A DNA stretch of 64,000 bases, taken from positions 32,001 through 96,000 of the forward strand of contig CAVSBO010000008.1 of assembly GCA_963726195.1 (NCBI GenBank), read 5' to 3'. A model generated the notes under the pieces. The model did not search any database and had not been told where the DNA came from. It saw only the letters and a list, made by a program, of their open reading frames with translations. Positions 38,169 to 42,678 of this stretch are shown here, in pieces. Every line of letters starts with the position of its first letter. Position 1 is the first letter of the stretch. The position numbers and the translations under genes are program-made. This stretch comes from Candidatus Thorarchaeota archaeon (GTDB lineage Archaea > Asgardarchaeota > Thorarchaeia > Thorarchaeales > Thorarchaeaceae).

Positions 38169-38690
38169 TTATGAAGGCTCGCCCTTTTGATCAGCTGCCT
38201 TCTTGACTGCATCAGGAACCCAGTCCATGGAATTCCTCAGTCCTGGATCCCTAATGAGTGCCAGCCTCGCTAGTTCAAGTGCCTTGTCCCATCGTTCCAA
38301 TTCGTAATTGATCTCGGCCATATGGAGTATCGCGAGAGGCAGTTTCTTCTCTCGCTTCAACGCAGTTTCAAACGCTGTTAACGACTCTTCAAGCATCCCG
38401 AGGATGCGAAGGCATACACCTTTGTTGAAAAGGGGAACGGGGTCCTTAGGTGCGATTGTAGCCGCTTTGTCCAGCAGGTCTAACGCCTCTTTGGCAGAGG
38501 GGCTGTCCTTCTTCGCGGCGCCCTCAGTTTCCATAAGCGCCACTGCCAGTGAAACCATCGCATTGGTGTGAGCCGGATTCTTGGAAACAATATCCCTGAG
38601 AATCGCTATTGCCTCCTCGGTCTTTCCACTAGTAAGTAGCATCGCGGCCTGCTGATACTCCGAGTCCTTCTTCCGTCCAAGTGCTGGCAT
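38169..38690 (-). CDS. Tetratricopeptide-repeat protein
   Basis: About four helical TPR units (EA...L, P....A, NKG..L..LG..EE). Confidence 0.8.
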   Translation of the reverse strand: MPALGRKKDSEYQQAAMLLTSGKTEEAIAILRDIVSKNPAHTNAMVSLAVALMETEGAAKKDSPSAKEALDLLDKAATIAPKDPVPLFNKGVCLRILGMLEESLTAFETALKREKKLPLAILHMAEINYELERWDKALELARLALIRDPGLRNSMDWVPDAVKKAADQKGEPS

Positions 38691-38755
38691 GGTGGTGTCG
38701 GATTGGACTGGAACCGACGATACTCTTAAGTCATCGCCTAATAGAACCGCCGCAC

Positions 38756-40115
38756 GTGGGACGTATCTTCGGCACAAACGGTGTGCGTGGAATCATTAAC
38801 CAAAGCATTACCGTGGACATGGCTCTAGACATCAGTAGGGCTGCTGCTACTATCCTAGGTGTCGGTCATGTTGCAATTGCCCGAGATTCTCGCATGGGCG
38901 GGGAGATGTTTTCACGGGCCATAACGTCAGGTCTCCTGTCGACGGGTTGCTCGGTCGTAGATGTTGGGCTCGCTCCAACTCCAGCGCTCCAATTCATGGT
39001 GCCCAGACTCGGCTGTGTTGGGGGCATTATGGTCACTGCATCACACAATCCCGGGGAGTTCAATGGCATAAAGGTCGTGGGACTTGACGGCATTGAGGTC
39101 TCTCGGGACGTTGAAAGCCGCATCGAAGAGGTGTACTTTGACAGGAAATTCAGAGTTGCTTCGTGGGACAAGATTGGAACTGTAGGAAGCTCATGATTCC
39201 GCACTGAGACAGTTCATGGACGGCATAAAGAATCACATAGACATTCAAAGGACGCAGAAACGGAGGCTCACAGTCGTTGTCGATTGTGCAAACAGTGTTG
39301 GTTCGCTGGTGACACCACAGCTCATGAGAGAACTTGGATGCAAGGTGTTCTCAATCAATGCACAGCTAGATGGTACCTTTCCTGGCAGGAAGCCTGAACC
39401 ACTTCCGGAGAACCTCACAGAACTGAGTCGGGCCGTCGTATCCATCGGGGCAGACATGGGAATTGCACACGACGGCGATGCTGACCGTGCAACTTTCGTG
39501 GATGAAAAAGGCCAGGTCCTCTGGGGTGATCAGTCGTTTGCGCTGATAGCCTCGCGAGTACTGGCCCGTAGACCCGGTTCAACTCTCGTAACACCGGTAA
39601 GCAGCGGGAGGTTGATTGAAGACATAGCCAAACAGACTGGTGCCAAGATTGTTTGGACAGAAGTGGGTAGTGTCGTGGTTTCTCACAAGGTGAAGGAAAT
39701 CGGAGCTGAACTCGGTGGAGAAGAGAACGGGGGCGTCTTTTACCCGCCGCATCAGCCAGTTCGAGATGGCCCAATGACGGCCGCCCAGGTTGTGGACATA
39801 ATGGCTGCCGATGGAGAAAGCTTGTCGAAGCTAGTTGAAAAACTACCTAGGTATGCCAACGCCAAGGTCAAGGTCCCAGTACCTGCCGAGAAGAAAGATC
39901 GTATACTCGGCGCTTTGCTTCGAATGACCGAAGGCCAAAACAGGGTCACGCTCGATGGAGTCAAGCTGATTTACGACGAAGGCTGGATTCTGATGAGACC
40001 ATCAGGGACTGAGCCTCTGTGGCGATGCTTTGCTGAGGGAAGATCTCAGAAGACCGCTGACAAGCTGTCTCAGCAAGGAGTGGACCTGATTCAAAAGGCG
40101 ATAGCGCAATCTTAG
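38756..40115 (+). CDS. Phosphoglucosamine mutase / phosphomannomutase, frameshift near 39190
   Basis: FGTNGVRG, TASHNP, DGDADR, GGEENG, RPSGTEP. Confidence 0.9.
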
Positions 40116-40261: not shown

Positions 40262-40636
40262 CTACTTCTTGGCCTTCGGAGGAGCCTTGGTCTCAGGCTT
40301 CTTCTCTTCTGGTTTTGCTTCGGGCTTCTTCTCCTCTTCAAAGTCGAAGTCCTCAAGTGGCTCAGGAGCTGGAGTTGTCACCATTGTCCAACCAATCCAC
40401 ATTCCGATAACAGCGATCAAGACCACGGCAAGCCAGATTGGGAGCATGATTAGAAACATCGGATCTGGCATGAAAAGGTCGCGCCATATGCCGGGCGGAA
40501 ATATGCTGTTGCCCCAAGCTCGGGCACCGGGTCCGAACCACGGGTTGGCTAGAATCACAAGATTCCAGGTGTAGTAGATTAGCACAAGAAATGCGACGAC
40601 GAGTATGAGAGCACCAATTCCTTTCTCTTTGCCCAT
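40262..40636 (-). CDS. Conserved archaeal two-TM membrane protein
   Basis: Two TMs then WIGWTM.TTP.P.P and acidic/Lys tail. Confidence 0.65.
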   Translation of the reverse strand: MGKEKGIGALILVVAFLVLIYYTWNLVILANPWFGPGARAWGNSIFPPGIWRDLFMPDPMFLIMLPIWLAVVLIAVIGMWIGWTMVTTPAPEPLEDFDFEEEKKPEAKPEEKKPETKAPPKAKK

Positions 40637-41472
40637 TAGTGTTCACTACCTACTCCGGTTTGAAAGCACTAGGAGGTTATCCGTTTCAGCCATAATAAAA
40701 GGATTGTGCAAACTGACATACTCCCACGGCTAAAGATTGTGAGGTTCTAAGGTCTGCATCGTCCTTGCAGTTGCCTCTTGGGGCGTATCAGTGCTGCCCT
40801 CCGACATATCACTTTCTACGTCGGATTGAGAAACGCCCACAGGACGCAATGCTATGTTGAACGAAGCATTGACGTCGGCGTTCTCCACGTACCCGCATGT
40901 TAGGCACTTGAATCTCTTACCGTTCCGGTCTCCTAAATGGCCGCACCTCGAACAGCTCTTACTCGTCCATGCAGGCTCGATGTAGGCTACGACTATTCCT
41001 TGCAGCTTGGCCTTGTAATCGACAAACTTTCGTAGCTGGCAGAAGGACCAACTGTTCAAGGAGTAGTTGAACGACTTTACATGTTTCTTGTCCTTTCGGA
41101 TGCCGCTAAGGTCTTCGAGCTTGATACCAGATCCCGAAGCCTTTGCTGTCTCGACTATCTTACTGCTCATCCTGTGGTTAATGTCCCTGACAATGCGGCT
41201 CTCTCCGTTCCTAATCTTCTTGACCATGCTATACTTCCTGCGTTTCTGGAGCCTGCGCCGGATGTTCTTGTACTTCTTGTGGATATGCCGGCATTGCTTG
41301 CCGAGCTTCCATACCTTTCCGGTCCTCGGATTACACACGACGGCCGCATGTCCGGTAGCGTTGAGGTCTACGCCAATGTAGTATTCTGGTTCCAAAGCTT
41401 CCTTCTCGGGTACGCTCACGCTGACATAGGGATGTTTGCCATTCCATGCGTACGTTTCAGCACGTTAAGATA

Positions 41473-41893
41473 CTACTTTGCTGATTTGTTCTTCACAGTG
41501 CTTCGAGTCCCACGAGTGTTAATCGCGGTTTTCGCTTTGGAATGATTGTGGTTTACGGCCGATTGAACGAGAATTGCTAGCGATCTCCCATTGATTTTGT
41601 CGTCCTTGAAAAAGTCGATAGTTCTCCATTTCTTGCCCTCAAGCCCGTTGTTGAATAGTTTGTCCGGGTCAGGAAGACTTGCACCTTCATAAAAAGTCAG
41701 CTTAACCTTGTCTTTGAAGGCATTTGCGACACAGACTATCCCATCGTGAGACCAGACTGGGGTACCCATCCATTTCCATTCCTCGACAATCTCGGGATCA
41801 GCATCGCGGATAATCTTGCGGATGTTGGTAAAAGTCACTCCGCGCCAATCAGTAAGTTTTGCGATTAAATCATTAATTAGATCACTTGCGTTC
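41473..41893 (-). CDS. DUF1801 (YdhG-like) protein, cassette cargo
   Basis: DWRG, ADP.I.EEWKWMGTPVW, KVKLTF..GA.L.DP..LFN..L; GGAG RBS. Confidence 0.88.
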
Positions 41894-41965
41894 ATTTTGA
41901 CATCTCCCATTTGAAGAGTTAATGAATCTATCAGGCTGATATGGTAATCTCTGCCCGCCATGTAT

Positions 41966-42030
41966 ATTGTGTGCCTGACCGGACATTAGTGTCAAACTGA
42001 AACGATAACGCGTACTTGGCCGCGTGTCAA
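41966..42030 (-). promoter_or_regulatory. Two tandem bacterial sigma70-like promoters upstream of the DUF1801 gene
   Basis: TTGACA-N17-TATCGT (42030-42002) and TTGACA-N18-CACAAT (41995-41966). Confidence 0.55.
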
Positions 42031-42678
42031 CATCGGCATATTCCTCGTCGACTTCTATTTGGTTTACCTTCTCAAACTCGGGAAACTCATAGGCCAGAGT
42101 CAGGTTCAGGCAGGCCACCATGATGATTCGTTTCTCATGGTCGGCCTTGATTCCCTGTGATGGGACGATGAGGTTGACGTTCTTCGCCTTCTTGATTGTT
42201 TTATTCCGACCATATTTGCGAAGTATTTGGTTTGCGATCATGGATTTGAGACCAATGTGCTAGCTCTTCGAGGAAGTTCCGGTTGTGTCGGACCTTGTAC
42301 GTCAGTATCAATGATTGTTCTTCTCTTCGATGCACTTCTTAATGGTCTCTTCGGATATATGGCAACAAGACTGAGCGCTGGCCGTACAATACGTTGTACG
42401 GTTGGCAAGCATATAATCTTCTCTCTATCAACTGGATACTACTCCAAGGGGTGTATGGACTCATCCCACGACTGAAGTGGTGGGCTTTCTCGTACTCTTG
42501 TCATAAGTATGCATGCGGAACTGACGCCACATGGGAAGAGCGAGATTCACCCTGTTCTGCGGTCGTCAGACAAGGTGGCATTTTTCGGTTTCAGGACGTA
42601 TAGCAATTCCTCGTGCGCAGGACTTATAATCAAGCAGTTTTGCAGACCAATCAATCCTAGCCACCTTGGAGCGTACTG

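Follow-up and report, generated by a model that had tools for sequence, protein, structure and literature searches.

Interruption of a Thorarchaeota tnpB gene by a recombinase-less cassette, probably inserted off target from a dnaN-docking serine recombinase family of Dehalococcoidia

Introduction

Among the described systems closest to the locus reported here, the ssrA-specific genomic islands of Dehalococcoides use the serine integrase DsiB (McMurdie et al., 2011; PMC3146451), and SCC and SCCmec, together with tandem SCC-like cassettes, are moved by CcrAB or CcrC (PMC11470126). In the attP/attB model for phage serine integrases, proximal half-sites in inverted orientation flank a 2-bp core, and a distal motif lies nearer to that core in attB (Rutherford et al., 2013; PMC3783163). 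Relaxed pairing of sites has a precedent in the Ccr system (PMC3783163).

We analysed a stretch of 64,000 nucleotides (referred to here as the window) from a Candidatus Thorarchaeota archaeon, the assembly of which comprises 2.9 Mb and is 88.9% complete. Many genes in Asgard genomes are of bacterial origin, yet how they arrived can rarely be seen. In the present case the sequence reveals the donor group, the boundaries of the cassette, the likely enzyme and the rule for the target, which makes the transfer route testable. Our best explanation, which we consider probable, is that a large serine recombinase (LSR) cassette of the Dehalococcoidia was inserted off target in an archaeal tnpB. What the window adds is an off-target, cross-domain insertion with base-exact boundaries.

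Results and discussion

The interrupted tnpB gene and its host element

The insert occupies window positions 41431–42034 (604 bp) and is flanked on both sides by GG (41429–41430 and 42035–42036), which reads CC on the minus strand, the strand that gives the dnaN sense of the cassette. When the insert and one GG are removed the local tnpB frame is restored (...EEYAYVSV...), and the rebuilt junction aligns without gaps to five tnpB paralogues from the host genome, as well as to homologues from two further Asgard genomes. Contigs of strain X2, which comes from another study and is about 96–98% identical, bridge the left junction (41360–41502) and the right junction (41974–42261), with one base altered in the gene-upstream dinucleotide (42035–42036), and in run X1 the right junction is spanned with zero differences. 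This support consists of contigs of the runs, each of which covers one junction, and the entire insert is found in no single contig. The bridging of the junctions by contigs of X2 and X1 shows that the insert did not arise during assembly, and the bridging of both junctions in X2 indicates that it predates the divergence of those strains. The insert, the flanking GG and the frame repair had been proposed in an earlier reading of the sequence alone, and the in-frame rebuild, the paralogue alignment and the strain contigs all confirm them. Neither an empty allele nor a circle junction was present among the run contigs; contigs lose rare forms, and this result is hence uninformative in both directions.

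The interrupted gene belongs to an IS200/IS605-type element on the minus strand, the approximate extent of which (40713–42490) was taken from the alignment with the five paralogues. Its terminal hairpins are present and its tnpA is reduced to the final codons. Domain searches place the RuvC and zinc-finger regions in the 3' part of tnpB (40730–41428, minus strand). The 5' part (42037–42311, minus strand) carries a further lesion: near 42262 a net loss of 65 bp throws the reading frame out of phase. Strain X2 lacks this deletion, which points to decay of tnpB after the arrival of the cassette. The closest named relatives of the interrupted tnpB are archaeal, and no match to this tnpB clade was found in 251 Dehalococcoidia at E ≤ 1e-40, although an empty search is weak evidence. 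The clade is resident in Asgard genomes. The contig itself is archaeal as judged by rps19, which lies within 4 kb of the insert, passes archaeal models and has mostly Thorarchaeota as its nearest named relatives.

We also note several features outside the element. Positions 40262–40636 of the window encode a small membrane protein with a weak match to DPM2 (E = 6e-5, under the Pfam cut-off), adjoining a phosphomannomutase-like gene, and at 38681–40115 a phosphoglucosamine-mutase-like gene is apparently split into two ORFs (38681–39196 and 39216–40115). A solo IS607-type TnpA without tnpB (L002:1306–1932; G000:C3, about 855 kb) directly follows a DNA methylase-like gene, which it apparently truncates.

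The cargo gene and its origin

The cassette carries a DUF1801 gene on the minus strand (41473–41895; PF08818, E = 5.5e-17) and no recombinase, as the sequence-only reading had stated. The YdhG-like product is probably 140 amino acids long, with an ATG start after a GGAG motif. Its closest relatives are 87–90% identical and come mostly from Chloroflexota bins, among which the window protein nests in a quick-version tree (support of 94 for its group). The whole cassette with both ends is also present in another context in a Chloroflexota locus, L005 (84% identity over 621 bp), and the sequence corresponding to 41425–42039 recurs with other flanks in the 5.3 kb contig X7-23 from run X7. In both, the DNA similarity ends at the cassette boundaries. 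A Chloroflexota origin of the cassette, which forms part of our best explanation, is therefore probable on the strength of these affinities. Upstream of the gene there is a sigma70-type promoter-like site (41966–41995, minus strand; TTGACA, 18 nt, CACAAT), the −35 hexamer of which is kept in L005; the scan returned two such sites against a chance expectation of 1.4 and is thus weak, at chance level.

DUF1801 genes were also encountered in other settings. In two bacterial bins (L004, at 2868–2985 and around 3667, and L006, downstream of the gene) the DUF1801 gene with its P-type arm (described below) adjoins GCGTGAACATCG repeats, and in L004 it comes after an attC-like palindrome. A second cassette system may have taken the gene up again. 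A related DUF1801 cassette with different flanking sites is found in Cryosericum-type genomes (L011–L015 and L019), and no close LSR was found in the two Cryosericum-type genomes searched; this cassette is a second spill-over outside the Chloroflexota.

A family of cassettes in the Dehalococcoidia

The end of the cassette downstream of the gene is formed by a conserved arm, referred to here as P-type (41431–41456, minus strand), with the family consensus CGTACGCATGGAANGGCAAACATC before the CC core. The window arm is an exact match to this pattern, followed by CC, and is the sole strong match in the host genome (score 56.5, with the next best at 18.7). The pattern matches in at least 120 metagenome stretches and in 17 of 301 Dehalococcoidia genomes, with up to 12 copies per genome, while control matches numbered zero. 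It is absent from 300 other genomes of the host's phylum; likewise, the cassette was not found in 60 relatives of the host, and neither BLASTN nor a position matrix revealed further copies in the host genome. A refined position-matrix scan gave 288 sites, compared with none in 756 kb of shuffled DNA. Of 122 cores flanked by both half-site motifs, 115 are CC/GG, as are those at the two junctions in the window.

The sites delimit arrays. At metagenome loci with at least two sites, all are in one orientation (61/61). The median unit between them is 1,095 bp long, and most units contain one ORF (81/121), which runs in the opposite direction in 21 of the 81 single-ORF units. Their cargo includes surface proteins, methyltransferases, regulators, acetyltransferases (GNAT), SnoaL and a few defence genes. 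Four matching pairs of units have different neighbours, three of them clearly so on both sides, and the units in bacterial arrays thus appear to be reshuffled. The fetched loci are partly non-independent (L116/L194 and L139/L140 are near duplicates), so that the counts describe the sample rather than independent events. No circular contigs with terminal repeats were found among the 120 metagenome loci. Not all arrays and single units are located at dnaN, and some are found in other phyla (Cryosericum) and in the archaeal window; in one genome (G062) dnaN and the LSR are on one contig and DUF1801 cassettes on another. The proposal that the insert is one member of a family with interchangeable cargo is borne out by the recurrence of the arm and by the arrays, the cassette recurs with other flanks in L005 and X7-23, and the gene-downstream arm recurs in metagenome stretches and Dehalococcoidia genomes.

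At seven loci (L007, L109, L123, L198, L200, L212 and L219) at least two further left-arm types are combined with an unchanged core and with arrays, a pattern suggestive of sister recombinases that share one target. At L005:3478 the arm type that normally precedes the core is inverted and follows it, a hint that recombination now and then takes place in the reverse orientation.

The dnaN target and the large serine recombinase

The consensus right arm of the family is the end of dnaN, with the CC core within the proline codon of the C-terminal ...MPMFVQW. The dnaN end is present in 15 of 120 loci picked by the P-type arm alone, and in each of the 15 the sites follow it in the same orientation; arrays often begin at this 3' end. 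The LSR genes of L112, L114, L155, L169 and L224 terminate within a dnaN-like arm, and the C-terminal motif encoded by the arm is present in 97 of 120 LSR homologues, followed by variable tails. In each of six look-ups, D. mccartyi included, the dnaN end is overlapped by a gene of this LSR family, and D. mccartyi strains have the LSR at dnaN. These LSRs were found by ORF clustering; phmmer with an IS607 catalytic-domain query nearly missed them. The anchoring at dnaN makes it likely that the dnaN 3' end is the primary target (attB) of the family, again as a part of the best explanation, and the association of sites and genes points to the dnaN-linked LSR as the likely enzyme that recombines them.

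The two arms differ in the position of the distal motif. In the left (P-type) arm GTA lies at offset 19 in 142 of 151 cases, whereas in the right arm it lies at offset 15 in 53 of 180 and at offset 19 in only six. The 4-bp shift that had been noticed in the archaeal target, one arm of which does have GTAC 4 bp nearer to the core, is thus a feature of the family.

The symmetry that had been seen in the cassette itself fared less well. Both ends do read inward as GATGTT-N13-GTACG, a pattern that occurs three times in the 2.9-Mb genome, two of these being the cassette ends, and CGTTTCAG is common to both, but not in the same register, the two positions being 8 bp apart. The upstream arm (42010–42034, minus strand) has only the proximal GATGTT in common with the family; it is a poor mimic of the dnaN 3' end and is not a conserved P-type arm either, and degenerate upstream arms of this sort are common in family units too. 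Its GTACG is not conserved: strain X2, contig X7 and Chloroflexota L005 all have GTCCG, which in L005 is in addition displaced by one base, so that the perfect symmetry of the ends is at least partly a matter of chance. The symmetric attP-like geometry predicted for the circle junction was therefore rejected: only the gene-downstream end is conserved and the opposite arm usually mimics the dnaN end. A circle junction would be non-symmetric, and family junctions appear to combine a P-type arm with a dnaN-like or degenerate one.

Two observations concern the elements at and near the LSR. In two D. mccartyi genomes (L248, CP006730; L249, CP006949) two LSR islands stand in tandem at the dnaN end, the first being 11.3 kb long and encoding a ParE toxin as well as a DNA methylase/ResIII pair. 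A recurring small module, consisting of a conserved 390-residue protein without an NCBIfam match, a 300-residue protein and variable cargo, is present in L105, L112, L114, L121, L181 and L208 and adjoins the LSR in L112 and L114. This module may be an autonomous helper element.

Insertion in the archaeon and alternative explanations

The empty target, AATATG-CC-TATGTC, is among the best 24 of the 339,786 CC positions in the genome under a 6+6 symmetric half-site model with the window's own locus excluded, and it matches the cassette half-sites at 4/6 on each side, as had been claimed. Against models of the true dnaN left arm it performs less well (the top 0.05–1.6%). The two rankings together identify the window site as a secondary target. 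The host assembly, at 88.9% completeness, contains no PF07508 protein, and the host has no IS110 transposase; the only serine recombinase of the assembly is one IS607 TnpA. Among 251 genomes of the host's phylum there is no close LSR, the single match being distant (29% identity). Viral contigs yielded neither the arm or site nor the LSR, and hence no vehicle for it. These absences weigh against the explanation favoured below, as do the poorer rank of the target against the dnaN arm, the degenerate upstream arm and a distal offset of 4 rather than 5 bp. The lack of a recombinase of this type in the host assembly, the dnaN target and the bacterial origin of the cassette had not been anticipated by the sequence-only reading.

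In our view, the data described above are most consistent with the cassette being a recombinase-less member of a Dehalococcoidia family moved by an LSR with its attB at the dnaN end. In each unit the first arm would usually restore the dnaN end, and the last would be the conserved P-type arm. A unit would be excised as a circle at CC and would re-insert at the dnaN end, at a junction within an array or at a site resembling the target, with repeated insertion giving rise to arrays; units that lack a recombinase would be mobilized in trans. The Chloroflexota cassette would thus have been inserted at a look-alike target in an Asgard-type tnpB, most simply in an archaeal cell in which the LSR was only temporarily present. 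The notion of a non-autonomous cassette that shares a 2-bp core and is moved in trans is supported, with an LSR as the most likely enzyme and the action in trans deduced from the structure of the units. We lean somewhat towards the further view that the Dehalococcoidia possess a serine-recombinase counterpart of the integron, with a pool of one-gene cassettes docking at the dnaN end and at similar sites, and that its loose and far-travelling LSR inserted the cassette directly into the Asgard chromosome.

A different cell of insertion would be implied if the IS200/IS605 element had acquired the cassette while it was in a Chloroflexota cell and had then moved to the archaeon, with no LSR acting there. 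Such a history would fit the absence of an LSR of this kind from the host and from the 251 genomes of its phylum, and IS elements are known to move between prokaryote groups. However, it accords poorly with the five tnpB paralogues in the host and the archaeal relatives of the interrupted gene, with an element that lacks its own tnpA and, less tellingly since the search was an empty one, with the failure to find this tnpB in the Dehalococcoidia; we regard it as improbable. The host's own IS607-type serine transposase is a candidate of another kind, as it could have inserted the cassette in trans. The genome has one such TnpA, the IS607 family crosses over at GG, and the core here is GG. The sequence-only reading had suggested a list of host recombinases with ends like those of the cassette. 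However, the IS607 locus contains no family site even at a low threshold, similarity of the target to the half-site of the family extends well past the GG, and family sites follow the LSR and dnaN rather than IS607. This candidate was rejected as very unlikely.

The remaining two explanations deserve still less credence, and both were rejected. The inward GATGTT at both ends and the dinucleotide repeated on each side would suit a MITE-like cargo element related to a DDE insertion sequence, in which short inverted repeats form the termini and 2 bp of the target are duplicated. The dinucleotide is, however, fixed, being CC/GG in 115 of 122 family cores, head-to-tail units in tandem arrays share one core, and the ends are unlike each other, one of them being the terminus of dnaN or of an LSR gene; these features contradict the duplication that had been named as an alternative. 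An assembly chimera or misbinned bacterial DNA might be suspected because the cargo shares about 90% identity with bacterial DNA of comparable sediments and because no single contig of the runs covers the entire insert. Against this, a divergent strain from another study bridges both junctions, which answers the concern about their coverage raised on first reading, the junctions fall exactly at the family core with the reading frame restored, and the archaeal rps19 lies on the same contig.

We therefore return to the off-target insertion of a Dehalococcoidia cassette. If an LSR did act in the archaeon, the locus would be a base-exact record of gene delivery from a bacterium to an Asgard archaeon by site-specific recombination, and it suggests that genes can be passed from one domain of life to another by a bacterial cassette system. 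Only one such event is represented by the archaeal locus, and the logic of the system is known from the ssrA islands and SCC. The dechlorinating D. mccartyi is a member of the class that harbours the family. The system also supplies a new integrase, the site pair of which is defined and the natural target of which lies in an essential gene, and this enzyme may serve as a genetic tool for these organisms, which are hard to engineer.

Comparison with known systems

The literature, consulted mostly as open full text, yielded no description of a dnaN cassette system in Dehalococcoides, in the Dehalococcoidia or among serine integrases, and none of a serine recombinase in connection with Asgard archaea or of integron-like serine cassette arrays. 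The main text of the Durrant LSR survey does not mention dnaN. The dnaN-docking LSR cassette system is thus apparently unpublished.

Integrons (IntI, attI and attC) resemble the family in having arrays of mostly one-gene units in the same direction, which are reshuffled between hosts and carry similar cargo. They differ in that the dnaN family is linked to a serine recombinase and has a 2-bp core with inverted half-sites in place of the attC hairpin; judged from their ends, the units terminate in a P-type arm and CC and not in attC. About a quarter of the single ORFs in the family are reversed, and the window cassette may carry its own promoter. A single Xer query, which is a weak test, found no IntI-type recombinase among 4,429 ORFs, and no integrase family is present in the recurring ORF clusters. 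Compared with the phage integrase model, the offset of the distal motif is 4 bp rather than the 5 bp of the LI integrase (PMC3783163), and the right arm of the family mimics attB, with junctions and predicted circles that are P/B'-like hybrids.

The likeness to the ssrA islands is closer. They belong to the same bacterial class, have a CcrB-like LSR with a variable C-terminus and a 3' end that overlaps the att site, are inserted at the end of a single-copy essential gene, grow by tandem accretion and include islands without an integration module (PMC3146451). The overlap of the recombinase 3' end with the att site and the tandem accretion are both found in the dnaN family, of which the window unit is a module-less member. 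However, the target and the repeated sequence are here dnaN and its 3' end, as opposed to ssrA with a 20-bp direct repeat, and the six-gene module of the islands (dsiB, dsiA, recF-like, parB, mom and a large protein) is not seen beside the LSR as judged by Pfam labels. The family units are mostly single genes of about 1 kb and also occur away from dnaN, in Cryosericum and in the archaeon. SCC likewise shares insertion by an LSR at the end of a housekeeping gene, the movement in trans, as circles, of tandem cassettes that lack a recombinase, and the use of distal sites (PMC11470126), but its target is rlmH and its cassettes are 17–26 kb long and confined to staphylococci (PMC11470126). The dnaN-family LSR falls far short of the NCBIfam cut-offs for CcrA, CcrB and CcrC; on the CcrB model it scores 126 bits, against a cut-off of 900. 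The family would appear to work like the ssrA islands and SCC, but on the grounds of target and recombinase it belongs to neither.
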